This document shows positions 6,053-22,785 of a stretch of 23,819 nucleotides of DNA, one piece after another. Both the position numbers and the translations under genes were made by a program. Numbering within the stretch: position 1 is the stretch's first letter; every line of letters begins with the position of its first letter. The DNA comes from Candidatus Hydrothermarchaeales archaeon (GTDB lineage: Archaea > Hydrothermarchaeota > Hydrothermarchaeia > Hydrothermarchaeales > JAZGAD01): contig JAZGAD010000013.1 of the NCBI GenBank assembly GCA_036444275.1, positions 1 to 23,819 on the forward strand, read 5' to 3'. Under the pieces are notes generated by a model that searched no databases, had not been told where the DNA came from, and saw nothing but the letters and a program-made list of their open reading frames with translations.

Positions 6053-6547
6053 ATGAAGATAAGTATTTCCCTAACTCTTTTTATATTGTACGCTTTTGTT
6101 CAAGCAAAATATCTTCATACTGAATTTAAGTATTGGTATTCCCCTTTTTTGTATATAATAATACCAATTCTTCCATGGTCGAACAAAATTTTTTATTATA
6201 CGCCTGGGTTTTTAAAAGAGTTTTTTAAAGAGGAAGGCTTAACTAGAAGATCAACCATTTTAGGTACTTTTTGGGGGTTTATTAGTTTCTGGTTAATTCC
6301 AAGGACTATTAGTGGTGGAACGACATTAGAGTTTTGGATTCAAAAATTTCCTGATATTGTACAAATTCCTTTATCTCTACCATCTTATGTCCTGTTCAAA
6401 GTTGGTTTAATGGACTTTTTCCAGGGTGGTTGTACCGATGCATGTTTTCATATGATAATACTGATACCAGTATTCATATTAATTTCAGCCATGTTAGGTG
6501 CCTCTATAGGTTACGGAATTTCTAAAATTTACCTCAAGGTGAAATAG
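6053..6547 (+). CDS. Hypothetical multi-pass membrane protein (AT-rich)
   Basis: ORF with several hydrophobic segments. ATG at 6053 preferred over GTG at 6029. Confidence 0.6.
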   Translation: MKISISLTLFILYAFVQAKYLHTEFKYWYSPFLYIIIPILPWSNKIFYYTPGFLKEFFKEEGLTRRSTILGTFWGFISFWLIPRTISGGTTLEFWIQKFPDIVQIPLSLPSYVLFKVGLMDFFQGGCTDACFHMIILIPVFILISAMLGASIGYGISKIYLKVK

Positions 6548-6860
6548 ATGAAGATATGGAAGAAGTGGGCTATAATAGGTGGAGTTTGGGGGTTTAGTTA
6601 GTTTTTTTGGCAGTTTTGCCATAGGATGTGGAGAGGAACGTAATTTGTTATTTCATGAAAAAATTATATTCCTTCCTATGGAAGTTGTAGTTATTTTTGG
6701 TGAAACACTCTTTAGGCTGGGAATCATTAATTTTCTCAGAACTATTTCTAGACTTCTTGCGTATCTTCTTTTCCCTATTCTTAATCCGATCACACTTTCT
6801 ATCCTTTTTGGTGTTGGCATAGGCATAATTATTGGCTCTTTGATTGAAAAATACAAGTAA
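6548..6860 (+). pseudogene. Membrane protein paralogous to the C-terminal half of the upstream gene, with a +1 frameshift near 6588-6598
   Basis: ATG at 6548 directly follows the upstream stop and reads MKIWKKWAIIGGVWGFS-stop. Removing one base near the G5 run (6588-6592) joins it to the 6579..6860 frame (LVSFFGSFAIG...). Confidence 0.55.
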
Positions 6861-6875
6861 AAGAAAAAATTAGAG

Positions 6876-6895
6876 GTAGGAGTCTAAACTCCTAT
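6876..6895. terminator. Hairpin between convergent genes
   Basis: TAGGAGT-ctaa-ACTCCTA, a 7-bp stem, preceded by an A-run (U-run on the minus strand). Confidence 0.35.
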
Positions 6896-7011
6896 TCTCC
6901 AACAATCTCCTAGCTAACTTCTCCTTATCACCGTTCCTAGCCCTCATGCTCTGCCTTATCAACTCCTCCCCTTTCTTTTCACCAAGACCAGGGTATACCA
7001 ACTTCCCACGC

Positions 7012-8235
7012 TTAGGACATTAAGTAAGATTCCAATCGCTCACATACCTGCGAGACCTTCTCTACGTTTTCCCTTGGGGTGTATACTCCGAAGCTCCACT
7101 GACTCTTCTGAGCATCCATCAATATATCCATCAGAGGAGATAGCTCTTTTATCTTGAAGACCTCTCCATCTTTAACTACTAGGGTCTCAAGTTCCTGGTA
7201 GACAGGAAGGGGAGGAATATCCAGTATCAGGTACCCTTCTTCTAAACCGCACTCACCAGCGATATCGGCTTCTAGAGCACGCCACCTTGAGACTTCCTGT
7301 CTAAGATTTAAGAGTGCATCCCTCATCTGCGGATCGACATCCCGCCACTCACCGACGTACGCCCTTTTAAAGAGCTTCCTTGCGTCCAGCCTAGCACCCA
7401 TCTCCTCTATATAGCCAGAAGCGCCCCTAAGGAGGCACATTGCATCATGGTCATCCATTTCGTAGAGGCTTCTACAATCAACGAGCCCGTCGCTTATCGC
7501 TCGCTCCATAGCCCTAAGGAACATGGCGTCAGCTATCCTGCTGGCATGATGCAAATATACAGTCGGTGTCATCAAAAACCTAGCTACCATCAGCGCTTCT
7601 ACTGCCTGAAGTCCACCCTCTGTTATCACGATGGAGTCCTCGAATACTTGTAGGGTATTTACGAGGCGGTCCAGGTCTATTACACCGTAGGCAACACCCG
7701 TATGGTGGGCATCCCTCACCAAGAAGTCCATTCTATCCACATCGAATTCACTGGATATGAGCTTCCCGAGATAGCCACCTCGCCCCATGATCAACTCACC
7801 TACTTCCTCAGGCTTCAAGCCTCCTTCCATCAACCTCTTTGATATGCCTGCACCACGAACCACATCCATAGTTACCTCCTCGTGGCTCATACCCATGTAA
7901 CGCTCCAAGAGCTCCTCTGACGTGTGGGAGAGCGGTCCATGCCCTAGGTCATGGAGGAGTGCCGCCATCCTTATCTTGTTCTTCTCGTCTATTGCTAGCT
8001 CCAGCTTGTCAGCGATCCTGCCAGCAAGATGCAGAGCGCCTATAGAATGCTCGAACCTTGTGTGATTCGCACTTGGATAGACTAAGTTGGTCATTCCCAA
8101 CTGCTTGATCCTCCTGAGCCTCTGAAACTCAGGCGAATCTACAACACTCATCTCTAGATCGGTGAGAAACACATCACCGTGCACTGGATCTCTAATAACC
8201 TTCGTCTTTCCCGGTCCTAACGCACTGTCGCTCAT
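7012..8235 (-). CDS. HD-domain phosphohydrolase (COG1078, dNTPase/SAMHD1-like)
   Basis: IRDPVHG, FQRLRRIKQLG, HTRFEHSIG, ALLHDLGHGPLSH, DVDRMDFLVRD and VYLHH. Confidence 0.92.
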   Translation of the reverse strand: MSDSALGPGKTKVIRDPVHGDVFLTDLEMSVVDSPEFQRLRRIKQLGMTNLVYPSANHTRFEHSIGALHLAGRIADKLELAIDEKNKIRMAALLHDLGHGPLSHTSEELLERYMGMSHEEVTMDVVRGAGISKRLMEGGLKPEEVGELIMGRGGYLGKLISSEFDVDRMDFLVRDAHHTGVAYGVIDLDRLVNTLQVFEDSIVITEGGLQAVEALMVARFLMTPTVYLHHASRIADAMFLRAMERAISDGLVDCRSLYEMDDHDAMCLLRGASGYIEEMGARLDARKLFKRAYVGEWRDVDPQMRDALLNLRQEVSRWRALEADIAGECGLEEGYLILDIPPLPVYQELETLVVKDGEVFKIKELSPLMDILMDAQKSQWSFGVYTPRENVEKVSQVCERLESYLMS

Positions 8236-8246
8236 CTAATAGCACC

Positions 8247-8651
8247 TCATTCTCCTATTACCTGAAGCATTACCTCTCTCTTCCTCGGTCCATCAAATTC
8301 AGCGAGGAAGACCCTCTGCCAGGTTCCCAACTGCAGTCTACCCTTGTATATGGGAATTGATTTGCTGCCTCCGCATAGGACTGCGCGTAGATGCGAATCG
8401 GCATTATCATCTATACGGTCGTGCTCATATCCAGAGCCCTTTGGCGCTAGAGTATCGAATAATCTCTCCAAGTCCCTCAATAATCCCGTTTCGTTCTCAT
8501 TGATTATTACTCCCGTAGTAGTGTGCCTTGTATAGATGTTTAATAACCCTTCTTTTACTCCTGCTTCACCCACGAATTTCTCGACTTCCCCAGTGAGGTC
8601 GAGGAATTGCGTCTTCCTCTTGGTATTTACTGATAGAATCTTGGACGCCAT
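8247..8651 (-). CDS. yjbQ: YjbQ/UPF0047 family protein (secondary thiamine-phosphate synthase-like)
   Basis: HTTTGVIINENE, NADSHLRA and LGTWQRVFLAEFDGPR. Start moved to the ATG at 8651 to avoid overlapping thrS. Confidence 0.9.
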   Translation of the reverse strand: MASKILSVNTKRKTQFLDLTGEVEKFVGEAGVKEGLLNIYTRHTTTGVIINENETGLLRDLERLFDTLAPKGSGYEHDRIDDNADSHLRAVLCGGSKSIPIYKGRLQLGTWQRVFLAEFDGPRKREVMLQVIGE

Positions 8652-8706
8652 CTCCAGCCCAATAAGTTTATAATCATAGATTGATTTAAGTTTTGCCGGT
8701 GCTGCA

Positions 8707-10560
8707 ATGAGAATTCTGCTCATTCATGCTGATCATATAGGGTATAAGGTGAAAAGCAAGACTCGGGTAGCTGAAGAGATTTCCGACGAACTTAAGGCGC
8801 AGGAGGCAGACGAAGCCCTTGTTGTATTCACGGCAGTCGAGGCAAGCGATGAGAGCGACTCTGGAAAGGCGGTGAATGAAGCATGCAGCGAGATAGAAAA
8901 GGTATTCAAGAATGTCAAAGCCGAGAGCATCTTCCTATATCCATATGCTCACTTGAGCTCGTCACTCGCAAAGCCCCAGGCAGCGGCGAAAATCTTAAAA
9001 GATATGGAGAAAAAACTAGGAGAAAAGTACCCGGTGAAGCGTGCGCCCTTTGGCTATTACAAGGCATTCGAATTGAGCTGCAAGGGACATCCGCTGGCCG
9101 AGCTGTCGAGGCAAATAACGGTTGGGGGGGAGAAGGAGAAAGTATCTGAGGCGGTTGAAGCTGAGAAGAAGCTGAAGTCCGAGTGGTTCATTCTGCATGA
9201 GGGGAAGCTCATCCCGGCTGCAAAATTTGACTTTACGAATTATCCGAGCTTGAAGACCTTCTATAACTACGAGACTACAGGCACTAGGGCTATGCAGAGG
9301 GAGCCGCCCCACATAAAGCTCATGAAGGAGCATGAGTTCGTGGACTATGAGCCGGGCTCGGATCAGGGCAATTTGAGGTGGTATCCAAAAGGAGAGCTAA
9401 TCAAGAAACTCCTTGAAGAACACGTTTCCAATATCCTGATTGATAACGGAGCAATGGAAGTGGAGACGCCTATAATGTACGATTTCCATCATCCGCAGCT
9501 GCGGAAGTATCTGGACCGCTTCCCGGCTCGGCAGTATGTAGTGAAATCTGATGATAAAGAGTACTTTCTGCGTTTCGCAGCCTGCTTTGGGCAGTACCTC
9601 ATGAAGCACGACATGAACATGTCCTATAGGCATTTGCCCATTAAACTCTACGAGCTCACTCACTACTCTTTCAGGCGGGAGCAGAGCGGGGAACTAGCCG
9701 GGCTTAAGAGGCTGCGGAGCTTCACTATGCCTGATATGCATACGCTCTGCAGGGACGTTGATCAAGCCAAGAAGGAATTCATAGAGCAGTACAAACTGAG
9801 CATGCAGTGGATGCGCGATATAGGCTTGCAGTATGACGTAGCCATGCGCTTTGTGAAGGACTTCTACACCGAGAACGAGGCCTTCATTAGGGAGCTTGCA
9901 GATATCGTTGGGAAACCTATCCTCGTCGAGATGTGGGAGCAGCGCTTTTTCTACTTCATTATGAAATTCGAATTCAGCATCAACGACGCCCTGGAGAAGG
10001 CTGCCACGTTATCTACTGTGCAGATAGACGTTGAGAACGCTGAGAGATTCGGCATAACTTATACCGCTACGGACGGCTCTAAGAAGCATCCCCTGTTGCT
10101 GCACGCCAGTATCTCTGGAGGCATAGACAGGAACCTCTACGCCATCCTGGAGCATGAATGGATGAAGGCACAGCGGGGCGAGAAACCATCTCTTCCTTTG
10201 TGGCTATCTCCGACGCAGGTACGGATTGTCCCTGTGTCAGACGAGCAGCTTGCGGCATGCAAGTCCCTGTTAAAAGATTTAGAAGATGCCAAGATAAGGG
10301 TCGACCTAGATGACGAAAACCTGACCCTCGAGAAGAAGATAAGGCGGGCCGAGAAGGAGTGGATACCGTACATTGTGGTCCTAGGCAGGAAAGAGTTGGA
10401 GAGCGGTGGACTCTCGGTAAGGATTCGGGAAGAGAAGGGAAAGGTAGAAAAGATGAATAAGGAGGAGCTCGTCCGCAGAATCAAAGATGCAACTGCGGGA
10501 AAGCCCTTCAGGAAGCTTCCACTGCCAAGCATGCTGTCTAAGCGGCCTACGTTCAGATAA
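8707..10560 (+). CDS. thrS: Threonine--tRNA ligase, archaeal type with N-terminal editing domain
   Basis: MRILLIHAD, YPYAHLSS, CKGHPLAELSR, LRFAACFG, FRREQSGEL, FTMPDMH and LPLWLSPTQVR. Confidence 0.97.
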   Translation: MRILLIHADHIGYKVKSKTRVAEEISDELKAQEADEALVVFTAVEASDESDSGKAVNEACSEIEKVFKNVKAESIFLYPYAHLSSSLAKPQAAAKILKDMEKKLGEKYPVKRAPFGYYKAFELSCKGHPLAELSRQITVGGEKEKVSEAVEAEKKLKSEWFILHEGKLIPAAKFDFTNYPSLKTFYNYETTGTRAMQREPPHIKLMKEHEFVDYEPGSDQGNLRWYPKGELIKKLLEEHVSNILIDNGAMEVETPIMYDFHHPQLRKYLDRFPARQYVVKSDDKEYFLRFAACFGQYLMKHDMNMSYRHLPIKLYELTHYSFRREQSGELAGLKRLRSFTMPDMHTLCRDVDQAKKEFIEQYKLSMQWMRDIGLQYDVAMRFVKDFYTENEAFIRELADIVGKPILVEMWEQRFFYFIMKFEFSINDALEKAATLSTVQIDVENAERFGITYTATDGSKKHPLLLHASISGGIDRNLYAILEHEWMKAQRGEKPSLPLWLSPTQVRIVPVSDEQLAACKSLLKDLEDAKIRVDLDDENLTLEKKIRRAEKEWIPYIVVLGRKELESGGLSVRIREEKGKVEKMNKEELVRRIKDATAGKPFRKLPLPSMLSKRPTFR

Positions 10561-11152: not shown

Positions 11153-11464
11153 TTATTCCTTAAACATCTGCAGGTCAAGTAATCTGGCACTATGAATAAC
11201 CCGCATTATGATTACCTTTGAGCTTTGAATGCGAAAAATGGTTCTGTAATTGGCATAGATAAGATGACGATATTCTTGCCCTAATTCCGTTGCTTCGGGT
11301 ATAATTGGACAGCGCATAGGAAAATTCTCTAACGAATCAATCTGGTGCTCGATCTCTTCAACCCATTTGCTAGCAGCATTTGGGTTATCTTGGGAAATAT
11401 ATTCAACGATCGATGTTATATCGGACTCAGCTACTGCGGTAATTTCAACATGAAACTTACGCAC
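11153..11464 (-). CDS. RelE/ParE family toxin
   Basis: VEITAVAESDI..I.EYISQDNPNAA, LENFPMRC, YRTIFRI and IMRVIHSAR. Overlaps the antitoxin stop. Confidence 0.88.
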   Translation of the reverse strand: MRKFHVEITAVAESDITSIVEYISQDNPNAASKWVEEIEHQIDSLENFPMRCPIIPEATELGQEYRHLIYANYRTIFRIQSSKVIIMRVIHSARLLDLQMFKE

Positions 11465-11729
11465 TGCCTTTAAGCTCCTTTAGAAAGTCTCGCGCCGGAC
11501 GAGTCCGCCCTTCTTTTACATCTGCTTCAGCTTCAGCTAATAAAACACCAAGATTTAATGCCTTCAATTTTTTCTCAAAAACTGCCGCATCAAGCAGTAC
11601 GACGTCTGGCTTTCCGTTAACGGTGACAACAATAGGACGGCCAGTACTGTGTAACTGCTCAAAAATTTCACGTGTCTTTTTCTTTAACTCGGAAACTGAT
11701 TTGATATCTTCAGTAATGCTTACAGGCAT
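11457..11729 (-). CDS. Phd/YefM family antitoxin
   Basis: IKSVSELKK...GRPIVVTVNGKPDVVLLD is the Phd fold signature; C-terminal AEADVKEGR. Confidence 0.9.
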   Translation of the reverse strand: MPVSITEDIKSVSELKKKTREIFEQLHSTGRPIVVTVNGKPDVVLLDAAVFEKKLKALNLGVLLAEAEADVKEGRTRPARDFLKELKGSA

Positions 11730-12775: not shown

Positions 12776-13240
12776 ATGAAGCTTACTCACCTCACTGAAA
12801 AAGGGGTAAGGATGGTAGAGATATCTGGGAAAGGGGATATCAAAAGGAAAGCAAAGGCCAGCGGCAAGATCAGACTACGAAAAGAGACCATCGCCAGAAT
12901 AAACGCTGGGGAAGTAGAGAAGGGAAATGTCCTCACCACGGCACAGATAGCAGCTACGCTGGCGGTTAAGAAGACCCCAGAACTGATACCCCTCTGCCAT
13001 CCTCTCCAGATAACCGGGGTAGACGTGCAATTCAACGTTGGAGAAGATGAGATAGAGACGACAGTCGAGGTTACATGCATCGCTAAAACCGGCGTTGAGA
13101 TGGAAGCCATAACCGGCGTTGCAACTGCCCTCTTAACTATCTGGGACATGGTTAAGTCTGTAGAGAAAGACGAGGCTGGACAGTATCCAATAACTGAGAT
13201 ATCTGAGATAAGGGTCCTGGAGAAGGTCAAGGGTGAATGA
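12776..13240 (+). CDS. moaC: Cyclic pyranopterin monophosphate synthase MoaC
   Basis: LTHL...[26 protein letters not shown] and TIWDMVKS. Confidence 0.96.
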
Positions 13241-13243
13241 AAA

Positions 13244-13780
13244 ATGAAGACATCTGAGAAACATAAAGAACTGGCACCGAAGAGTGTTAGGGCAGCTGTC
13301 GTCACCGTATCTGACTCGAAATTCGACTATCTGTGGAGCAGTGCAAAAGAGCTGGAGGAAACCAAGGATGTATCAGGGAAACATATTATGGATGCCTTGG
13401 AGAAAGCCGGCCACGAGATAGCCTTCTACACGATAGTACCTGACCACGAGGGGGTAATAGTAGAGATGATAGACCACATAGTGGCTACATACGCTCCAGA
13501 CATCATTATTACAACTGGCGGGACAGGCATAGCGAGGCGCGACGTAACAGTTGAAGCAGTGCAGAGTATCTTCGAGAAGGAGGTAGACGGCTTTGGGGAA
13601 CTATTCAGAAGGGAGAGCTTTGAAAAAATGGGAGGAGCTGCCTTGCTCACCAGGGCACTGGCAGGAGTATACCAGGATACGGTCATATTCTCTCTACCCG
13701 GCTCCCCTGATGCAGTTAAAACAGGCATGAAGATCATTCTGAAGGAAGCTGGACACCTTGTCAAACACCTACGAGAGTGA
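13244..13780 (+). CDS. moaB: Molybdopterin adenylyltransferase, MoaB/MogA family
   Basis: VTVSDS, D.SG, TTGGTGIARRDVTVEA, GFGELFR and LPGSP. Confidence 0.92.
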   Translation: MKTSEKHKELAPKSVRAAVVTVSDSKFDYLWSSAKELEETKDVSGKHIMDALEKAGHEIAFYTIVPDHEGVIVEMIDHIVATYAPDIIITTGGTGIARRDVTVEAVQSIFEKEVDGFGELFRRESFEKMGGAALLTRALAGVYQDTVIFSLPGSPDAVKTGMKIILKEAGHLVKHLRE

Positions 13781-13784
13781 TGTT

Positions 13785-14714
13785 ATGGTAACGAAAATTT
13801 ATGACAGGTTTAATAGGCCTTTGGTGAGCGCACGCATCTCGGTAACGCATAGGTGCAATCTGAACTGCCTATACTGCCATCGAGAGGGCGTCTCCGATAA
13901 CTCGCGGGAGGAGATGACCCCAGAGGAGATTGTAAGGGTAACCAGCATCTTAGCTAAGTATGGCATGAGCAAGGTGAAGATTACTGGCGGCGAGCCCCTT
14001 CTCCGCAGCGATATATGTGAAATCGTAGATGGCATTTCAGGTGTAGATGGTATAGAAGAGGTCTCGATGACTACGAATGGCGTCTATCTTGCCGGGTATG
14101 CTTCCAAGCTGAAAGACTCTGGCTTGAAGAGGGTCAACGTCAGCTTAGACACCCTGAATGCTAGGACCTTCAGGAAGATTACAAGAGGTGGAGGTCTCGC
14201 GGGCGTGCTAAGAGGCGTGGATGCAGCGGTAGACGCTGGTCTGAGGCCTGTGAAGCTGAATATGGTGGTTATGAATGGTATAAACGAGGATGAGATCGAG
14301 AGGATGCTAGAGTTTTCCTCCAAGGATGATGTGATCCTCCAGCTGATAGAGCTTATGACCACGGAGGGAGGCTTCTTCAGGGAGCACTTCTATGACCTAG
14401 ACGAAGTGGAGAGCAGCTTTGAGAGAAAGGCAAAAGATGTTATCACGAGGAGGTTTATGCAAGGACGCAAGAAGTACTTGTTGAACGGCGTTCAGGTTGA
14501 GGTTGTGAAGCCAATGCATAATACTGAGTTCTGCTCCCACTGTAGCAGGATGCGGATTACGGCTGACGGTAAATTCAAACCCTGCTTGATGAGGCGCGAC
14601 AACCTCGTGGACTTCTTATCCGAGATGAGGAATGGATCCTCAGATGCCAAATTAGAGGAGCTCTTTAAAGCCGCTGTTGATAGGAGAGAGCCCTTCTTCG
14701 TAGAGAAAAATTAA
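13785..14714 (+). CDS. moaA: GTP 3',8-cyclase MoaA (radical SAM)
   Basis: CNLNCLYCHREG, TGGEPLLR, NVSLDTL and FCSHCSRMRITADGKFKPCL. ATG at 13785 preferred over TTG at 13758. Confidence 0.96.
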   Translation: MVTKIYDRFNRPLVSARISVTHRCNLNCLYCHREGVSDNSREEMTPEEIVRVTSILAKYGMSKVKITGGEPLLRSDICEIVDGISGVDGIEEVSMTTNGVYLAGYASKLKDSGLKRVNVSLDTLNARTFRKITRGGGLAGVLRGVDAAVDAGLRPVKLNMVVMNGINEDEIERMLEFSSKDDVILQLIELMTTEGGFFREHFYDLDEVESSFERKAKDVITRRFMQGRKKYLLNGVQVEVVKPMHNTEFCSHCSRMRITADGKFKPCLMRRDNLVDFLSEMRNGSSDAKLEELFKAAVDRREPFFVEKN

Positions 14715-15681: not shown

Positions 15682-16275
15682 CTACTCATCTGCTCGGCAC
15701 GCCTTACAGATTTTCCTAGCTCCCTCCAGCTTCAAATATCCCGTCAATACTACCTCGCCGCATTCAGTGCATATCACATACTCCAGCGACGGCACTCCCT
15801 CAGTGTAAATCGCCTCACCTTTAGTAACAGTGAAGAGATCTTCATCCTGCATTTTTTCCAAGTCATTAACTATCCGCTGCCCCCATTGAAGCAGATCCCT
15901 TGCCTCCTTTTCTCTTTCCGTAGGTGGAAGGGACTTCACCTCCTTCCCGCGAATGCCGTAGCTGAGGGTGTCCTCCAGTATTTGGTTTTTGACCCTGATT
16001 CTTATTGTTTTATTAGATGCGAGGTCATGAAATGAGCAGGCGAATTTTCCATGCTCCTTGTAAGATAGGTTGTTCTTGCCATAGGTGGTGCCGCAGGCAT
16101 ACTGTATGCCGTCTGCGAGGCAGTTCCTGAACTCTACTGCAGCGAGGAGCTTAACCCCTTTCTCCCTATCCCTATCCAGCTCCTTCAAGGCTTTCTCTCC
16201 CATCCTCAAGCCCAAGTAAAACATCGGGCAAAGGTGCCCATGGAACTTCACAGCCTCTTCTAATTCCAGGCCCAT
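15682..16275 (-). CDS. FmdE-family protein with a C-terminal zinc finger
   Basis: FHGHLCP..YLGLRMG, CLADGIQ, TYGKNNL, GKFA, and C-terminal CTECGE...CKAC. ATG at 16275 preferred. Confidence 0.88.
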   Translation of the reverse strand: MGLELEEAVKFHGHLCPMFYLGLRMGEKALKELDRDREKGVKLLAAVEFRNCLADGIQYACGTTYGKNNLSYKEHGKFACSFHDLASNKTIRIRVKNQILEDTLSYGIRGKEVKSLPPTEREKEARDLLQWGQRIVNDLEKMQDEDLFTVTKGEAIYTEGVPSLEYVICTECGEVVLTGYLKLEGARKICKACRADE

Positions 16276-16312
16276 GCAACAAGCTTTTATCTCCACAAAT
16301 AAAGGTTTTTGT

Positions 16313-17020
16313 ATGAAGAGTGATGTCGAGGAGTACTACTCAAGGAGGGCTCATACTTATCACGACCTAGATAAGCCCAATACTATAGTAGCCTGCGTCA
16401 GAGCAATAGGCATAGAAGACCACTTAGAGATAATCGCGCCTAAGCCAAGCGAAAAGATACTAGACATGGGCTGTGGATCAGGTAGATTCCTAAAGCCTTT
16501 TTCCATCGCCAAGGTATACGGCATAGACTTTACGATTAAAATGCTGCAAAAGGCGAAGGATAGCGGTGTGCCCCTAGTTCGCGGGGATGTGGAGCACCTG
16601 CCGTTCAAGAGCAACGCATTTGATATAGTACACTCAGCTGGGCTGCTGGGCGTATACAGATCAAAAAAGATACTCGCTGAAGCTGCAAGGGTGGCGAAAA
16701 AAGGTGGAAAGATGTATGTGAGCTTCCCGGCTACTCCAAGCGCTAGTGGTGTCGCTGTGAAACTCTTCCAAAGGTTCTATAACCCAGCCTTGCTTGATTA
16801 CTGGTATACAAAAGGCGAGATAAAGGAGATGCTACCGGGAGGAGTAATAGTTTTAGATATTCATCGTCTGGGATGGGAACCCCCATTCCAGCGCATCTAC
16901 AGGTATGTGGGGTCTGAGAGGCTGGTCAAACTCTTCTTGTACCTCGAGAGGAATCTGAGAGATAAGCCTATGTTCAAGTACTTCAGGGCCCGCTTCCTCT
17001 TGGAGGTCGTGAAGGAGTAA
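16313..17020 (+). CDS. Class I SAM-dependent methyltransferase
   Basis: ILDMGCGSG, GIDFT..ML, GDVEHLPF...FDIV and RVAKKGG. ATG at 16313 preferred. Confidence 0.9.
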   Translation: MKSDVEEYYSRRAHTYHDLDKPNTIVACVRAIGIEDHLEIIAPKPSEKILDMGCGSGRFLKPFSIAKVYGIDFTIKMLQKAKDSGVPLVRGDVEHLPFKSNAFDIVHSAGLLGVYRSKKILAEAARVAKKGGKMYVSFPATPSASGVAVKLFQRFYNPALLDYWYTKGEIKEMLPGGVIVLDIHRLGWEPPFQRIYRYVGSERLVKLFLYLERNLRDKPMFKYFRARFLLEVVKE

Positions 17021-17081: not shown

Positions 17082-17381
17082 ATGCCCACGGTATCCGTTA
17101 GACTGGATGAAGGCACTCTCAAGGATCTGCAATTCCTCATGAAGGACTATAAGGCTGATAGATCAGAAGTCCTGAGAAGGCTTCTAGACAGAGGTTTAAA
17201 ACAGGCAAAAATAGAGAAAGTCTTAGGGCTACTGCGTGAACACAAGATCTCCATCGGGAAGGCAGCAAAACTCGCGGGAATTACGATTTACGAGATGATC
17301 GAGCTCTGCAAGGAGCACGAGATCCACATAGGCTACACGAAGGAAGACCTGTATCGGGATTTGGAGAGATTCAGGATTTAA
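17082..17381 (+). CDS. UPF0175-family antitoxin with an N-terminal ribbon-helix-helix
   Basis: TVSVRLD...DRSEVLRRLL (RHH), then ISIGKAAKLAGITIYEMIEL (UPF0175). Confidence 0.85.
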   Translation: MPTVSVRLDEGTLKDLQFLMKDYKADRSEVLRRLLDRGLKQAKIEKVLGLLREHKISIGKAAKLAGITIYEMIELCKEHEIHIGYTKEDLYRDLERFRI

Positions 17382-17393
17382 GAGGGTGAGTCT

Positions 17394-17900
17394 ATAAAGG
17401 CTGTCTTGAACTCAACTCCATTGATCTACCTCGGGAAGGTCGGGAAGCTGGAGCTTTTGAAAGATTACGACGAGGTTTTTATTTCTCCAACGGTCTATGA
17501 GGAGACCGTCAGCAAAGGCATTGAGAAAGGCTTCCTCGACGCGAAGATTATTCAAAAGGCCGTCGATGGGGGCATGGTTAAATTAAAAAAACTTAATACA
17601 GAGCAGAGCAAAGAAGCGCTGGAACTAACGAAATTCGCAGGTATAGAGCTCGGCGAGGCTGAGGCGATCATACTTGCAAAGGACTTGAAAGCAGAGCTAC
17701 TGATAGACGACGTTGTCGCCCATGGCGTTGGGAGGACCTTTGGGATGGAACCCTTATGGACCACTAGCTATATCTTAAAGTTAGTCAGTAAAGAGAGGCT
17801 CACCAAAACTGGGGCTAGAGAGATCATAGAAAAACTCGTAGAAGCCGGCTATCGAATAAGCGAAGACGTACTTGTAGAAGTCCTACGAAGACTAGGTTGA
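17394..17900 (+). CDS. DUF3368-type PIN-domain toxin (VapC-like); start uncertain (ATA at 17394 or TTG at 17406)
   Basis: KAVLNSTPLIYL, VYEE, LGEAEAIILA, LLIDD and GYRIS. Paired with the UPF0175 gene. Confidence 0.85.
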   Translation: MKAVLNSTPLIYLGKVGKLELLKDYDEVFISPTVYEETVSKGIEKGFLDAKIIQKAVDGGMVKLKKLNTEQSKEALELTKFAGIELGEAEAIILAKDLKAELLIDDVVAHGVGRTFGMEPLWTTSYILKLVSKERLTKTGAREIIEKLVEAGYRISEDVLVEVLRRLG

Positions 17901-17936: not shown

Positions 17937-18173
17937 CTATTCCTGCGGCTTTGAAGCAGGCGTATACCCAGTAACAACATTATTACTCTGGATAAAATAC
18001 AGTGGAAACCCAGTTATAGGGTCCTTTTCTTCTGTCCTAAAGATGCTTGTTACAATGATCTTAAGCCGTAAGACATTGCCGTCACTCAAGCTGTACTCGT
18101 TCCACTCTTCCTTCATCGGCTCGAAGTCAATCTGCTCAGCTTCTACAACTCTTCCACCCATATTTATTTTCAT
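17937..18173 (-). CDS. Small beta-rich hypothetical protein, last gene of the methyltransferase/AAA operon
   Basis: 78 aa with EEWNEYSLSDG...DPITGFPLY; strong GAGGAGGT Shine-Dalgarno; 11 bp after the AAA stop. Confidence 0.8.
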   Translation of the reverse strand: MKINMGGRVVEAEQIDFEPMKEEWNEYSLSDGNVLRLKIIVTSIFRTEEKDPITGFPLYFIQSNNVVTGYTPASKPQE

Positions 18174-18184
18174 TTTGTACCTCC

Positions 18185-19066
18185 TCAGAAATTGTACTTG
18201 TGGATGCAGTCTTCACCATATATTTTATCATATCCACGTACCATCACCGGTGTCAACCATGGTCTAACTTTCCCCAATGCATATTCCAAATCATCGGCAG
18301 ACAGCACTACTGAATCATTGTCTTTTCCCAATACATGTAGCTTCGCCTTTCTGCAAAGTGCCTCTATATCCCAGCCCACGTAGTACTCTGTCTGCTTCAC
18401 CAGCTTCTTTAAGTCAACACTGGGGAGCTTCGCGTCCTTCAAATAGTACTTGAATATCTCCAGCCTATCCTCCTCGCCTGGCCTAGGAACATAAATCTTC
18501 CTCCCCAGCATGCTCGTCCTCGTGAACGCTTGATCTAACACATCGATGCGGTAGCACGAAGCAGCTACAATAACATCAGGCATAGACGCGACCTTCTCAA
18601 CCTCCTCATGCACAGCACGGTGCACTTCGTCGCTCCCAAATTTATCAGGCTTGCCACTGGTAGAGCTGTCGTCCCAAGCATAATCAACATCCTTCCTCGG
18701 ACAGAGCCAATCGATGTCCATCAAGTGCAATACACAAGGCCTGTTCTCCACGGCGAACTTAAAGCCGTCTCTAATTACCCTCGGGTGATCTGTACATTCC
18801 CTACCTCTGATTATTACGTAGCTCACCCCAGCTTCTCCAGCAGCGGCCTCAATCATGTGCCCCTTGCCAGTACCAAGCGGTCCCCAGACGACCACGCCTG
18901 TTGGAGGAGTTATACCAGCGCGCTCCAACACCTCTGGATATACTAGGGGCACTACAATCATGTCATTGAACTTCTCCTTCACAGAAGCGTAGCCAGCTAT
19001 CTGGTCGAAACTGAACTTGGGATTCCTGACGTCCAAATAGGTGTGCTCATAAACCTTAGCCTTCAT
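18185..19066 (-). CDS. Single-domain Cdc48-like AAA+ protein; Walker A Lys kept, Walker B and Arg finger degenerate
   Basis: GVVVWGPLGTGKG, PCVLHLMDID, ASCYRID, FTRTSMLGRKIYVPRP and YVGWDIEALCRKA. Confidence 0.85.
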   Translation of the reverse strand: MKAKVYEHTYLDVRNPKFSFDQIAGYASVKEKFNDMIVVPLVYPEVLERAGITPPTGVVVWGPLGTGKGHMIEAAAGEAGVSYVIIRGRECTDHPRVIRDGFKFAVENRPCVLHLMDIDWLCPRKDVDYAWDDSSTSGKPDKFGSDEVHRAVHEEVEKVASMPDVIVAASCYRIDVLDQAFTRTSMLGRKIYVPRPGEEDRLEIFKYYLKDAKLPSVDLKKLVKQTEYYVGWDIEALCRKAKLHVLGKDNDSVVLSADDLEYALGKVRPWLTPVMVRGYDKIYGEDCIHKYNF

Positions 19067-19082
19067 TTATTCCCTCGATGAA

Positions 19083-19943
19083 TCAATACATGTAGCGGTG
19101 TTTGCACTCTTCCCTAAAGATCTCTTCATGGTGCTTCACCACAGCTGGGTCAAGAGCTGGTGGAACCTTCTTCACAGCGTCTTTAAAGTGCGTCAACGCT
19201 ACCTCCTGAAAGTCGTCACCCTTATCTTTTATCGCCAGCAATGCTGCCTCCCTAACCAGTGATAGGAGGTCACCTGAGGAATAGCTCTCTGTCATCTCTG
19301 CTAGTTTTTCTAGCGACACATCCTCGCATATGGGCATATTCTTAAGGGACAATTTGAAAATCTCGATCCGATCGTAGTAGTCTGGGGCAGGAACATACAC
19401 CTTGCGGTCTATCCTCCCATTCCTGAGCAGAGCTGGATCTAGGAGTTCCGGGCGCTGTGTGGCGCCAAGCGTGATCACGTCTTCACGTTTTGCTATCTTG
19501 TCTATCTCTGAAAACAAAAGCCTAGTAATAACAGAAGAAGCCCACTTCTCATCTGCCGTCTCTACCTCCCGCCTTGGGGCTAGAATCTCTATATCACCAA
19601 TGAAAACGACACATGGAGCTAATTCAGATGCCTTCTCATACAAGGTGGAAATATGCTCATTATCCCCCATTAGATCCATAGCCTTCGCTGAGATGTAGTT
19701 ACAGCCTGCAGATTCCGCCGCTGCTTCACCAAGGGCACCAAAACCACTGTTAGAAGGCCCCCACATTAGCACGCCTATATGTGGCTTAACACCGGCCTTC
19801 TTAAAGGTCTCTGGGTACTTCAAAGGCAGGGATACTAGTTCCTCCAGGCGTTCCTTTACCTCCTTGAATCCAGCTATAGCTTCCCAGGACAACTTAGGCT
19901 CCTTCACCTTGAAATATTCCCCTGGGTCAAGCACTTCACACAT
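19083..19943 (-). CDS. Single-domain Cdc48-like AAA+ protein; Walker A Lys lost, Arg finger intact
   Basis: GVLMWGPSNSGFG, PCVVFIGDIE, GATQRPELLDPALLRNGRIDRKVYVPAPD and YSSGDL. Confidence 0.88.
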   Translation of the reverse strand: MCEVLDPGEYFKVKEPKLSWEAIAGFKEVKERLEELVSLPLKYPETFKKAGVKPHIGVLMWGPSNSGFGALGEAAAESAGCNYISAKAMDLMGDNEHISTLYEKASELAPCVVFIGDIEILAPRREVETADEKWASSVITRLLFSEIDKIAKREDVITLGATQRPELLDPALLRNGRIDRKVYVPAPDYYDRIEIFKLSLKNMPICEDVSLEKLAEMTESYSSGDLLSLVREAALLAIKDKGDDFQEVALTHFKDAVKKVPPALDPAVVKHHEEIFREECKHRYMY

Positions 19944-19980
19944 CTATCAACACCTACATATTTGCTCCAAAATTTTCCAT

Positions 19981-21036
19981 CTAACTACCGTATTTCCTCG
20001 CAGCTTCTACCAGTGCATGGATATTTTCAAAGGGCGTTCCAGAATGTAGACCACAGCTACTGGAGACAATGTAGCCTTTTTTTCCAGCTCCCTGGATGCA
20101 CTCCTTGACCTTTGAATCTATATCCTCCTTGCTTCCCTTGAATATTAATTCTACGGAGACATTCCCAAATAATGCAACCTTGCTCCCTACTTTTTCCCGA
20201 GCTTGCTCTAGCGGGACACTCTCGTCTATGCTCAGACACCTAGCCCCAGTAGTAGCGAGTTCCCCAAGTATCTCTGACGTGTCTCCGCATATGTGGATTA
20301 TTACGCTACCGCCATACTTCCCAAGAGCAGAGCACACCTTCTTCTCATAGGGATATGCGAACTCACGATAATGCCTGTGGGAGATAACCTGGCATGCAGC
20401 CGATGGGTCTTCCATCATTATCCCATGTGTACCAGTATCTATCTGCCTCTTGCCAACTTCTATCGCTATGTCAGCCATGAAGTCCAACAACTTGTGGGCA
20501 TCCCTAGGCGAGGTCACCAGATCAAACATAAAGTTCTCCATGCCACGCATCCACTCAGCAGCATAGTGAAAGGGAGCCGGAACCTTGCTGCAGATATAGA
20601 CTCTATCTTTCGTAAGTTCTAAAAGCGTAGCTAGCGGCTGCATTCGCTCGGCACTAAAGTCAGGCACCTCTAATTCGTCTAGGGTAGAATAGTCTTTCAG
20701 CGCTGGTTCAACTACAGCAGGTCCACCTTCCAGAGGTATCTTGAGCTTTGGGCCCAGCTCAGTTGGGAGTACTACGTAGCCATCTTTGGTTTCCATACTA
20801 CGCTTCTCCTTCTCGGTCACGCCCTGAATTGGCTGGTGATTAAAGATCCAATCATATTTGTACTTCTCCAGGGCTGCAAGCTGTCCCTTTACGTAGAGCT
20901 CGTTGTCAGTCACGTATTCCCACGGCTTAACTCCTAAAACCTTGGAGGCATGAGGCACATTCACCATAGGTGCAACCGGTACCAAGTCAGGCTCTTGTAG
21001 GTCCATTGCAGCCTGAAAACGCTCCCTCGAATTCAT
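19981..21036 (-). CDS. MtaA/CmuA (UroD superfamily) Zn-dependent methylcobamide methyltransferase
   Basis: MNSRERF...PDLVPVAP, the HICG Zn motif, GNV and SSSCG. Start set at ATG 21036, 4 bp after the corrinoid gene stop. Confidence 0.85.
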   Translation of the reverse strand: MNSRERFQAAMDLQEPDLVPVAPMVNVPHASKVLGVKPWEYVTDNELYVKGQLAALEKYKYDWIFNHQPIQGVTEKEKRSMETKDGYVVLPTELGPKLKIPLEGGPAVVEPALKDYSTLDELEVPDFSAERMQPLATLLELTKDRVYICSKVPAPFHYAAEWMRGMENFMFDLVTSPRDAHKLLDFMADIAIEVGKRQIDTGTHGIMMEDPSAACQVISHRHYREFAYPYEKKVCSALGKYGGSVIIHICGDTSEILGELATTGARCLSIDESVPLEQAREKVGSKVALFGNVSVELIFKGSKEDIDSKVKECIQGAGKKGYIVSSSCGLHSGTPFENIHALVEAARKYGS

Positions 21037-21040
21037 ATTT

Positions 21041-21694
21041 TCATCTGCCTTTTGAGTGCATAGCCTGCAACTCACGCATAATCTCCTCGAACAAACGGAC
21101 TGCCTTCCCAGCATCGCTGGCATAGCCATTGGCTCCTATTCTCTTGCAATAGGGATCAGAAACTGCTGCACCACCGATGATGAATTTCACACTATCCTTC
21201 AAACCCTGTCTCTCAAACTCCTCGATTACTCCCTGCATCTTATCCATAGTGGTAGACATCATTGCCGAAAGAGCAACGACATCGGGCTTTATCTCTTTCA
21301 CCTGCTCCACAAAAGCTTTAACAGGTACATCCCTACCTAGGTTGTGGACCTCGAAGCCGGCGCCCTCCAAGAACATGGCTACCAAATTCTTGCCTATATC
21401 ATGAACGTCCCCCTCAACTGTGCCGATCACTACCCTGCCACGGTTGTCGTCGTCGCTGGTGAAAAGTCTAGGACGCAGCAACTCTAGTGCCTTCTGCATT
21501 GTATGGGCAGACAGCAATACTTCAGGCACAAAATACTCCCTGTTTTCGTATTTATTTCCAACTTCTTCCATACCGCTAGTCAGCTCTTGCAGGACCTCGT
21601 CAGCCTCACGCGTCTCCAAGGCATCCGCTACGAGTTTTGAGATTCTGGAAATATCTCCCTTTATTATAGCCTCCTCTATTGCATCAACTCTCAT
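21041..21694 (-). CDS. Corrinoid (B12-binding) methyltransferase protein, MtbC/MttC-like
   Basis: Cap domain with EYFVPEVLLSA; GTVEGDVHDIGKNLV (DxHxxG), LSAMM and IIGGA. Confidence 0.95.
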   Translation of the reverse strand: MRVDAIEEAIIKGDISRISKLVADALETREADEVLQELTSGMEEVGNKYENREYFVPEVLLSAHTMQKALELLRPRLFTSDDDNRGRVVIGTVEGDVHDIGKNLVAMFLEGAGFEVHNLGRDVPVKAFVEQVKEIKPDVVALSAMMSTTMDKMQGVIEEFERQGLKDSVKFIIGGAAVSDPYCKRIGANGYASDAGKAVRLFEEIMRELQAMHSKGR

Positions 21695-22706
21695 TAGCTA
21701 CCCTTACCATCTCTTTTATGTTATCTCCATTTGCATTGGCCGGTACCACACAACCAGAGCTAAGAACGACTTTATCCTGAAGTCTAACGACAGCCTCAGA
21801 TGCCCTTCTAACTTCTTCTTTGCTCCCGTCTACCAGCAATGCTGGAGAGACATTTCCCCAAACAGCTGTATGCTCATGCACCTGGACAATGTCCATAACT
21901 TCGTCCACGCTTATACAATCTGCACCTGTGGCAATCATATCTCCTAATATTTGCTTCACATCACCGCATATATGGAAGATTACAGGCACTTGGATCTCAT
22001 CTATCAGGGCTTTTTCATAAGGCAGAGCAAACTTTCGATAATCCCCGGGGGAGATTACGCTTCCAGAGGCAGCCGGGTCCTCGACGTAAAGAGCGTCTGC
22101 TCCAGCATCGACTTGGGCTTTCGCATATTGAGTACAGTACTCCAAAGCAAAGTCTAGGAATTCATATGCAGAGGCTTCATCGGTCTTCATAGCAAGTAGG
22201 AATGACTCTAAGTCGTATAGAAAGGTCGAAGCAAGGGTGAAGGGACAACGCATGTTGCCGCATACAAAGTCCTCTTCCTGCATTAGGCGGATAGGTGACA
22301 TACGCTCCTCGTCTGGCACTGGAATCTTGAGTTCTTTAAGTTCTTTACTAGAGGATACAGCGCTCTTCACCAACTGCGGCTGTCCCTGCGGGAAGACCTT
22401 GTATTTCACGCCTAGCTCTAGTGTAAGGATAGCATGATCGCTAGAGAACTCTACTCCCTCCCTTTCTTTTCCTGTTACTGCGCCAAAGAATTGATGAGCC
22501 CACACCCAATCGTAGCCGTAATATTCCCGTGCATGAATCTGTGCTTGGGCATATCTCTCGCTGTCAAGGAGATATTCGAGAGGTTTAATTCCAGAAAGCT
22601 TGGAGGAATGGCCGAGGTTTATAAGTGGTGCAACTGGAACGCGGTCTGTGACCTTGCCAAAAATTGACTCCAGAACGATCATGTCTTTATGTCTATGAAA
22701 GAACAT
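21684..22706 (-). CDS. Second MtaA/CmuA (UroD superfamily) methyltransferase
   Basis: DRVPVAP, CPFTLA, EDPAASGSVISP, FHICGD, WGNVSP and SSGC. Overlaps the corrinoid gene start by 11 bp. Confidence 0.85.
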   Translation of the reverse strand: MFFHRHKDMIVLESIFGKVTDRVPVAPLINLGHSSKLSGIKPLEYLLDSERYAQAQIHAREYYGYDWVWAHQFFGAVTGKEREGVEFSSDHAILTLELGVKYKVFPQGQPQLVKSAVSSSKELKELKIPVPDEERMSPIRLMQEEDFVCGNMRCPFTLASTFLYDLESFLLAMKTDEASAYEFLDFALEYCTQYAKAQVDAGADALYVEDPAASGSVISPGDYRKFALPYEKALIDEIQVPVIFHICGDVKQILGDMIATGADCISVDEVMDIVQVHEHTAVWGNVSPALLVDGSKEEVRRASEAVVRLQDKVVLSSGCVVPANANGDNIKEMVRVANES

Positions 22707-22785
22707 ATAAATTTTTAATTAAGTGATTATTGATGTATATTGAGCAAGTTGTATTTTAAATCAAAGTATAGAGAGATGTCTAAGT

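Follow-up and report, generated by a model that had tools for sequence, protein, structure and literature searches.

Corrinoid methyltransferases supply methyl groups to anaerobic one-carbon (C1) metabolism, and the helpers known for them are activases of the ASKHA type. Two genome papers on Hydrothermarchaeota (one of them PMC6775978) name, in the portions consulted, mtrH/mtrA as well as "methyl transferases of methylamide compounds" and nothing else of this kind. Here we describe a corrinoid methyltransferase operon that carries two AAA genes. It was found in a stretch of 23,819 nucleotides (nt; the window), which is contig JAZGAD010000013.1 (C13) of a 1.49-Mb metagenome-assembled genome (MAG) of the deep-sea Candidatus Hydrothermarchaeales archaeon that is 81% complete (GCA_036444275.1, here G000; other genomes, contigs and loci are given by G, C and L numbers). 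Six minus-strand genes encode, in order, an MtaA-like methyltransferase (MT1), a corrinoid protein (Cor), a second MtaA-like methyltransferase (MT2), two AAA proteins (AAA_A and AAA_B) and a protein of 78 amino acids (aa). Our results support the AAA pair as a dedicated, co-inherited operon partner of the corrinoid methyltransferase within Hydrothermarchaeota, and outside the phylum the same AAA family goes with FmdE. A prediction made from the sequence of the window alone (the original prediction) had stated that a link between such AAA proteins and corrinoid methyltransferases was not described, and this held: in the literature searched, which did not extend to the Hydrothermarchaeota supplements (PMC6775978 Tables S13 and S15, methyl-transfer genes; these may list the genes in question), nothing was found that ties AAA proteins to FmdE or to corrinoid methyltransferases. 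As far as can be told, neither the fixed accessory AAA pair nor the AAA-FmdE family has been described before.

Judged by the domains that its genes encode, the locus specifies a corrinoid methyltransferase of three components, MT1, Cor and MT2, and carries two accessory AAA genes. MT1 and MT2 match the Pfam family URO-D (2.3e-52 and 1.9e-66, respectively). Their nearest NCBIfam models are methylcobamide methyltransferases of the MtaA/CmuA type (158-172 bits, cut-off 244), which for MT1 is methylcobalamin:CoM methyltransferase (158 bits, below cut-off), and the scores of both against TIGR01463 and PRK06252 were 143-172 bits (cut-offs 235-244). The PDB entry nearest to MT1 is MtaA (4ay7, 1.2e-18). 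Cor matches PF02607 and PF02310 (4.6e-18 and 4.5e-27), contains the lower-ligand motif Asp-x-His-x-x-Gly in its translation and reaches 191 bits with TIGR02370 (pyl_corrinoid, MtgC/MtbC-like; cut-off 215). Orthologues of MT1 are 48-66% identical and those of MT2 67-78%. The methyltransferase part is of a known kind. As in the systems of the MtaABC, MtsAB and Mto types with RamA, a corrinoid protein with B12-binding_2 and B12-binding domains is flanked by methyltransferases of the MtaA/CmuA (URO-D) family, and the genome encodes a RamA homologue. Unlike those systems, this locus has two methyltransferases that are both of the URO-D type and below every equivalog cut-off, two AAA genes fixed in the operon, and RamA outside the operon except as a neighbor in G010.

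Pfam and NCBIfam scans of the window proteins detected no RACo/RamA gene, as the original prediction had noted. Its use of this absence as a premise failed, since PF14574 gives 326 bits on another contig of the same genome (G000:C12) and was above the cut-off in 23 of the 38 genomes of the phylum and in 10 of the 11 that carry MT2. The eleventh, G024, is 62% complete. In G010, a RamA frame (7560-9359, +) adjoins MT1 (6524-7516, -) divergently (C32, L039). The whole-genome search reports one in-frame TGA in this RamA match (G010:C32:7560-9359), and the open reading frame (ORF) call is open for 599 aa. In-frame TAG codons, one or two each, were also seen in other URO-D/MtaA-like matches of three related genomes (G031:C18:2851-3654, G032:C84:2770-3573 and G026:C14:85757-86560); each may reflect a broken gene, a pair of genes or the decoding of TAG as an amino acid. 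Archaeal TAG recoding is discussed, with mention of Hydrothermarchaeota, in a preprint (10.1101/2024.09.30.615893).

The distribution of the AAA genes was then investigated in related genomes, 41 of which were taken into the AAA_A homologue search; the phylum tallies run over 38 genomes. A sharply separate group of proteins of about 290 aa, with 46-57% identity to AAA_A, was found in 10 genomes, and the remaining matches were Cdc48/PAN-like proteins of at most 42% identity. The gene order Cor-MT2-AAA_A-AAA_B of G000 recurs in eight other genomes from five families of the phylum (G005, G009, G010, G017, G023, G024, G026 and G032). AAA_B orthologues are present in 9 of 38 phylum genomes (8 of 21 genera), and in all nine they lie beside AAA_A, MT2 and Cor. 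MT2 orthologues are present in 11 of 38, namely these nine and G001 and G013, whose contigs end inside AAA_A and 290 nt past MT2, respectively. MT1 stands directly upstream of Cor in seven genomes (G000, G001, G005, G010, G017, G023 and G024, the last with only the C-terminal end of MT1, at a contig edge). In G026 and G032, the MT1 orthologue is on a separate contig, divergent beside a third AAA paralogue, AAA_C; in G023, too, AAA_C divergently adjoins an MT1. The distance between MT2 and AAA_A varies from 7 to 128 nt among related loci and is below 20 nt in 5 of 9. This recurring arrangement is far more than chance. The distribution within genera is patchy and all-or-none (e.g., 2 of 5 and 1 of 3 genomes), the mark of an accessory module that is passed on as a block.

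The six packed minus-strand genes, their families and their spacing were described correctly in the original prediction, as ORF coordinates and Pfam matches agree; the intergenic distances calculated from the ORF coordinates are -11, 4, 37, 16 and 11 nt. These gaps fit one operon, together with Shine-Dalgarno (SD)-like sites ahead of AAA_A (GGTG), AAA_B (GAGGG) and the 78-aa ORF (GGAGG) and a TATA-like stretch before MT1, where the AT-rich region is a by-eye candidate and likely the operon promoter. A possible separate promoter was considered for the 37-nt gap between MT2 and AAA_A, where an A/T stretch precedes the ATG by about 25-32 nt and is accompanied by the GGTG site. The longest MT2 frame starts at 21129, and the ATG at 21036, which gives 351 aa, was taken as the start because orthologues align from residue 1 of this form. 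The 78-aa ORF is probably a real gene and is outside the conserved unit: its one homologue in the phylum is a 127-aa ORF in G036, which is without the AAA cluster, and none of the eight other AAA_B genomes carries a homologue. Its membership in the system, as originally proposed, was thus dropped.

Considering that the pair had been called Cdc48-like, the domains and motifs of the AAA proteins were compared with those of known members. AAA_A and AAA_B each consist of Pfam AAA and AAA_lid_3, with no further domains. CDC48 is the best NCBIfam model for AAA_A, AAA_B and AAA_C, the nearest part for the pair being the D2 half (TIGR01243; 214 and 140 bits, cut-off 802), and the best solved relative of AAA_B is VAT of Thermoplasma, in its D2 domain (5vc7/5g4g, matched at residues 278-539 or 454-715, 3e-58). 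AAA_C is encoded on another contig of G000, AAA_C-type matches were found in the same 10 genomes as AAA_A, and its relatives above 58% identity are archaeal only. The AAA plus AAA_lid_3 fold family is shared with the D2 domain of Cdc48/VAT/p97. However, one module of 286-293 aa is present here, whereas Cdc48 is built as N-D1-D2 with about 730 aa; the scores stay at 140-220 bits against the cut-off of 802, pore loop 1 is deleted, an insert follows Walker B, Walker A and B are degenerate in AAA_A and AAA_B, and the C-terminus is a new invariant Cys-x-His-x-Tyr-x-Phe/Tyr.

The P-loop Gly-Lys-Thr was lost in all AAA_A sequences (7/7). AAA_B keeps the Walker A Lys with Thr changed to Gly or Ala, has Met-Asp for the Asp-Glu of Walker B and a Tyr as its sensor 1 residue, and is without the second arginine finger; among the archaeal B-type proteins (n = 54), Met-Asp occupies Walker B in 49 of 49 readable. 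AAA_C keeps Gly-Lys-Thr (6/6) and, in Walker B, the Glu (as Asn-Glu); its sensor 1 residue is again Tyr. When aligned with Cdc48 D1, Cdc48 D2 and PAN of G000, five residues of pore loop 1 (Lys-aromatic-hydrophobic-Gly-Glu) are deleted in all three paralogues; the insert after Walker B has 9-11 residues in AAA_B and AAA_C and is shorter in AAA_A. In the C-terminal motif, Cys, His and Tyr are invariant in 20/20 and 23/23 aligned sequences, the tails reading Cys-x-His-x-Tyr-x-Tyr in AAA_A and Asp-Cys-x-His-Lys-Tyr-Asn-Phe in AAA_B. An IQ-TREE tree of 32 sequences, whose three outgroup rows included two with a single padding-derived stop codon each, placed AAA_A and AAA_C as sisters (99/93) and AAA_B with a bacterial family (100/99). 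Because they are single modules with pore loop 1 deleted, and with degenerate Walker motifs in AAA_A and AAA_B, the three paralogues are, as far as motifs tell, modules without a threading loop and not Cdc48-like unfoldases; two of the three are likely incapable of ATP hydrolysis.

The large set of relatives outside the phylum was obtained with AAA_B. A length-restricted search returned 54 archaeal-type proteins with at least 57% identity and many bacterial proteins of 292-293 aa with 35-43% identity, from Deferrisoma camini, Geothermobacter ehrlichii, Desulfuromonas versatilis, Firestonebacteria and Verrucomicrobiota. The bacterial members share the insert after Walker B and end in Asp-Cys-Pro-His-His-Tyr-x-Phe; their Walker B is Ser-Asp, and the Walker A Lys is replaced by Ile, Met or Val in 64 of 64 readable bacterial-type sequences (n = 66). 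The best 150 matches of a profile search with AAA_A, AAA_B and AAA_C were mostly multi-domain Cdc48-like proteins and included two single-domain members (295 and 303 aa). A length of about 290 aa, the deletion of pore loop 1 and the end [DE]-Cys-x-His-x-Tyr-x-[FY] are common to AAA_A, AAA_B, AAA_C and the bacterial homologues; the family definition also includes a degenerate Walker A or B, AAA_C itself being nearly intact. A heme-regulatory Cys-Pro reading of the bacterial tail was considered and dropped, because the archaeal tails of A, B and C have not retained the Pro.

We found that the bacterial genes are paired with FmdE. A metagenome scan gave 80 bacterial loci (L067-L146), and within the sequence at these loci no match to MT1, to Cor or to MT2, and no further AAA gene, was seen. 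Directly downstream on the same strand, 32 of the 45 loci with a called +1 ORF encode a protein of about 155 aa, which Pfam assigns to FmdE. When a hidden Markov model (HMM) was applied to the 66 bacterial loci with at least 450 nt downstream, FmdE directly followed the AAA gene in 47 by a strict start test and in 52 with the five frames that start inside the AAA gene. The gaps are mostly between -56 and +34 nt, and most are overlaps. The bacterial FmdE proteins keep His-Gly-His-x-Cys-Pro-Met, a second Cys and an Asp. In FmdE structures (2glz, 2gvi and 3d00), Zn or Zn/Ni is bound at a His-His-Cys-Cys site of the N-terminal domain (PMC2954224, consulted in part), and the conserved His-Gly-His-x-Cys-Pro-Met/Cys site corresponds to it; the terms AAA, ATPase and neighbor are absent from that paper. 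Unlike FmdE/FwdE (PF02663) of formylmethanofuran dehydrogenase operons, the partner here is a degenerate AAA protein and not Fmd/Fwd subunits. In the window, an FmdE gene shares the strand of AAA_B and is 1.9 kb past it, the two being separated by a class I S-adenosylmethionine-dependent methyltransferase (SAM-MT) gene and a toxin-antitoxin-like pair, and FmdE is within 3 kb of AAA genes in G000, G005, G009, G024 and G041. A complex prediction for AAA_B (23-row alignment) and the window FmdE (20-row alignment) scored 0.00 in two runs and was counted neither way. AAA-FmdE is an ancient partnership spanning Bacteria and Archaea.

Therefore, the claim that the AAA pair is dedicated to the methyltransferase stood within the phylum, where AAA orthologues are linked to methyltransferase genes in nine of nine genomes, and did not extend to the family, which outside the phylum is tied to FmdE. 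At the family level, the orthologues are unlinked to methyltransferase genes: the 80 bacterial loci and G041 (L056; a MAG of 0.8 Mb labelled Methanocellales, with the nearest orthologues outside the phylum) show no such methyltransferase genes in the sequence available, and the link there is to FmdE. In some bacterial loci, further genes were observed. An ArsP_1-type predicted permease is at +2 after AAA-FmdE in 14 of them, and FG-GAP/ASPIC, NosD/beta-propeller and CarboxypepD_reg proteins are encoded farther downstream. These neighbors hint that the role of the bacterial pair has to do with the envelope or with metals.

Other genes recur around the archaeal AAA genes (table 1). In G041, FmdE, a variant radical SAM gene, AAA_C and AAA_B stand in a row, convergent on a second radical SAM gene, FmdE, p142, p94 and SAM-MT, and no URO-D match was found in this incomplete genome. 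SAM-MT and FmdE adjoin AAA_B in G000, G005 and G009, and orthologues of SAM-MT are beside AAA_B in G005, G009 and G041. The genes p142 and p94 adjoin AAA_C in G000 (C20:7381-8090, L048), G001, G005, G009, G017 and G024, with orthologues also in G041. They have no Pfam or NCBIfam family, and their best ESM Atlas feature scores (0.89 and 0.83) lead to no named family. p142 has an N-terminal Cys-x-Cys ... Cys-x-x-Cys zinc ribbon and an invariant Phe-Leu-Ala-His-His-Phe-Asp. Its model (predicted local distance difference test, pLDDT, 84.4; predicted template modeling score, pTM, 0.81) gave no Foldseek match against PDB at E ≤ 0.001 (E > 0.1), and the best hit of a VIA wide search (Z 5.2) covered 45-49 residues of beta-propeller-blade-like strands, so no fold was assigned. 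The variant radical SAM protein (NF045502, 164-178 bits, above cut-off; MSMEG_0568-like, below cut-off) is encoded near AAA_C, which it adjoins together with an AsnC-type helix-turn-helix gene in G005, G009 and G017, and no copy was found in the 81% of G000. A protein of about 650 aa (651 aa) is encoded near the cluster in G005, G010 and G041 (40-47% identity), and its G000 copy is on another contig. Over the phylum, p142 was counted in 10 of 38 genomes, the SAM-MT orthologue in 8 and the FmdE orthologue (49-63% identity) in 9; the genomes with any of them are the AAA/MT2 genomes, with G031 as the sole exception, and the misses among the AAA/MT2 genomes (G001, G013, G032 and partly G024) concern genomes that are 62-82% complete.

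Table 1. Coordinates of the features discussed (window positions unless a contig or locus is given)
Feature	Position	Strand	Size or remark
MT1: URO-D/MtaA-like methyltransferase, His-x-Cys ... Cys zinc-type motif	21684..22706	-	340 aa
Cor: corrinoid protein, B12-binding_2 + B12-binding, Asp-x-His-x-x-Gly	21041..21694	-	217 aa
MT2: URO-D/MtaA-like methyltransferase	19981..21036	-	351 aa; best-conserved gene of unit
AAA_A: single D2-like AAA module, Walker A without Lys	19083..19943	-	286 aa
AAA_B: single D2-like AAA module, Walker A G-K-G	18185..19066	-	293 aa
78-aa ORF, strong GGAGG ribosome-binding site	17937..18173	-	without Pfam/NCBIfam/PADLOC family
SAM-MT: class I SAM-dependent methyltransferase, Methyltransf_11	16274..17020	+	convergent on operon
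FmdE-family protein, Phe-His-Gly-His-x-Cys-Pro metal motif + C-terminal zinc finger	15682..16296	-	Pfam FmdE 1.5e-31
AT-rich region 5' of MT1, TATA-like stretches	22707..22785	-	by-eye reading
AAA_C: third AAA paralogue	G000:C20:5006-5878		
Variant radical SAM	L056:6250-7323; L032:9962-11026; L035:7307-8359; L038:20-853		
~650-aa protein	L056:3645-5597; L036:6102-7985; L039:9397-11274; G000:C48:16846-18684		no Pfam/NCBIfam match

Several further observations concern the surroundings of these genes. The window also contains AcnX, UbiD/UbiX, an archaeal ThrRS, ArgRS, MoaC/MoaB/MoaA and two toxin-antitoxin-like pairs. One of these pairs, UPF0175 and DUF3368 (PIN-like) at 17082-17900 (+), matches the PADLOC candidate PDC-S70 (38 and 62 bits); ParE/Phd is at 11153-11729 (-), and MazE/PIN lies directly 3' of AAA_C (G000:C20:4305-5005). 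The UPF0175/DUF3368 pair sits between SAM-MT and the point where the AAA operon ends, which looks like a variable insertion site, because a PNPOx gene occupies it in G005. MoaC, MoaB/Mog-type and MoaA genes (12776-14714, +) lie 1-3 kb from FmdE. FmdE is fused to a MoCF_biosynth domain in some proteins (PMC2954224, consulted in part); the Moa genes near FmdE may be a coincidence, because G005 is without such neighbors. SAM-MT was also considered as an arsenite methyltransferase, and this was rejected (47 bits, cut-off 263); its sole invariant Cys is within the SAM-binding Gly-Cys-Gly, and ArsM-like cysteines are missing.

Based on the observed gene content, conservation, co-occurrence, motif loss and FmdE linkage, we predict, at somewhat less than an even chance, that the AAA proteins form a non-threading hetero-oligomeric scaffold or metal/cofactor-handling adaptor, which with FmdE has been recruited to the corrinoid methyltransferase. 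AAA_A and AAA_B would be stand-alone modules derived from the Cdc48 D2 type that have lost the features of a motor. Joined by AAA_C, they would assemble into a hetero-oligomeric ring with AAA_C as the only subunit, if any, that turns over ATP. AAA rings made of both active and inactive subunits exist, and the paralogous modules of unequal ATPase-motif integrity encoded together here resemble them; unlike them, the bacterial family has a single, fully degenerate copy. The ring might serve as a nucleotide-gated scaffold or adaptor that threads no substrate, and the invariant Cys-x-His-x-Tyr tails may contact a partner or a metal. Because the conserved partner FmdE has a His-His-Cys-Cys metal site, the AAA/FmdE set can be read as a device that handles metals or cofactors or assists in assembly; the Cys/His tail and the FmdE His/Cys site together point to such handling or to docking. 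This lineage would have recruited the device to a zinc- and cobamide-dependent methyltransferase, its putative client, and reductive reactivation would be left to the RamA encoded in the genome.

Several observations weigh against this prediction. The Walker A Lys is kept in 50 of 52 readable archaeal AAA_B proteins, so nucleotide binding and perhaps slow hydrolysis are possible, and the loss of function is one that we infer from motifs. Since the sequence at the 80 bacterial loci shows no methyltransferase genes, the general function cannot be corrinoid-specific, and the HMM search detected no FmdE in 14 of the 66 bacterial loci. Moreover, G031, of the genus Pyrohabitans, has a p142-FmdE-SAM-MT block (G031:C45:10953-12966) with no orthologue of AAA_A, AAA_B, AAA_C or MT2, which indicates that the modules are separable, and Ca. 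Pyrohabitans (G026) has its FmdE module, its AAA_C and its A-B operon on three contigs.

The main rival, which we consider doubtful, is that the methyltransferase trio, AAA_A, AAA_B, AAA_C, FmdE, SAM-MT, p142, p94, the variant radical SAM protein and the 651-aa protein belong to a single larger pathway; the corrinoid enzymes would then perform steps of its catalysis and would not be clients of the AAA proteins, and the methylation or maturation of a cofactor, protein or metal(loid) might be the outcome. Such a pathway would account for the recurrent neighborhood in G005, G009, G017, G024 and G041, for the co-occurrence of p142, SAM-MT and FmdE with the AAA/MT genomes, and for the permease gene that follows the pair in 14 bacterial loci. 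However, neither G041 nor the bacterial loci show corrinoid genes in the sequence available, the FmdE module of G031 stands without AAA or MT2, SAM-MT is without the cysteines of ArsM, and no product can be named.

The original prediction itself had proposed a dedicated chaperone, activase or scaffold made of the AAA pair and the 78-aa protein, taken here as an ATP-driven factor for the loading, repair or reactivation of the Cor cobamide in place of RamA/RACE. In its favor, the pair is strictly linked to Cor and MT2 in one operon in all nine genomes, the window is without RamA, and the literature search found no such link. Nevertheless, we regard it as decidedly improbable. RamA is encoded in G000 and in nearly all MT2 genomes, beside MT1 in G010, and the reductive activases RamA/RACE are of the ASKHA type with RACo_C_ter and an Fe-S domain, whereas AAA_A and AAA_B match only AAA and AAA_lid, with no Fe-S or redox motif in Pfam or NCBIfam. 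The deleted pore loop, the degenerate Walker motifs, the homologue loci of Bacteria and G041, with no such methyltransferase genes in the sequence available, and the non-conserved 78-aa ORF all speak against it as well.

It is very improbable that the AAA genes serve proteostasis in general, work with the proteasome or form a defense module and merely co-travel with the operon, although CDC48 and PAN are the nearest named families (PAN model: AAA_A 170-174 bits and AAA_B 123-125 bits, cut-off 500), PADLOC IetA is matched weakly (41-55 bits) and toxin-antitoxin-like genes are nearby: adjacency to MT2 is kept over five families at 50-70% protein identity, G000 separately encodes a PAN-like protein (C19) and a full-length Cdc48 with two domains (754-aa frame, C12), neither an N-domain nor a PAN-type N-terminal coiled coil/OB domain was found in AAA_A or AAA_B, and the IetA scores are far under those for CDC48. 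The C-terminal motif of PAN is hydrophobic-Tyr-X, with a penultimate Tyr; the pair ends in Tyr-Met-Tyr and Tyr-Asn-Phe, with Tyr third from the end. An anti-phage defense role of the pair was rejected, as only weak IetA/TRIP13 matches were seen (AAA_A and AAA_B: NCBIfam IteA, 42-49 bits, cut-off 510; PADLOC IetA, 41-47 bits).

So, a compact AAA family occurs in Bacteria and Archaea in which the threading loop is gone, the ATPase site has decayed, a Cys/His tail has been added and the gene is almost always encoded with FmdE. It is a candidate for the short list of AAA+ pseudo-enzymes, and FmdE, for which structures but no function have been available, gains a concrete partner to test. The predicted scaffold can be carried further, to a largely silent AAA_A/B/C hetero-hexamer that, with FmdE and through its Cys/His tails, inserts or exchanges metal or cobamide in corrinoid-dependent methyltransferases. 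We consider this version rather unlikely; if true, it would be the first maturation factor of the classic AAA+ clade for B12-type enzymes and would give FmdE a function, which it has been without since the 1990s, and the bacterial counterpart would serve other metalloenzymes. G031 amounts to a natural "deletion" and could be of use in telling the functions apart, and the partnership is testable at the bench because cultured Desulfuromonas versatilis, Geothermobacter ehrlichii and Deferrisoma camini carry the AAA-FmdE pair. The AAA-FmdE family may matter more than the operon itself.

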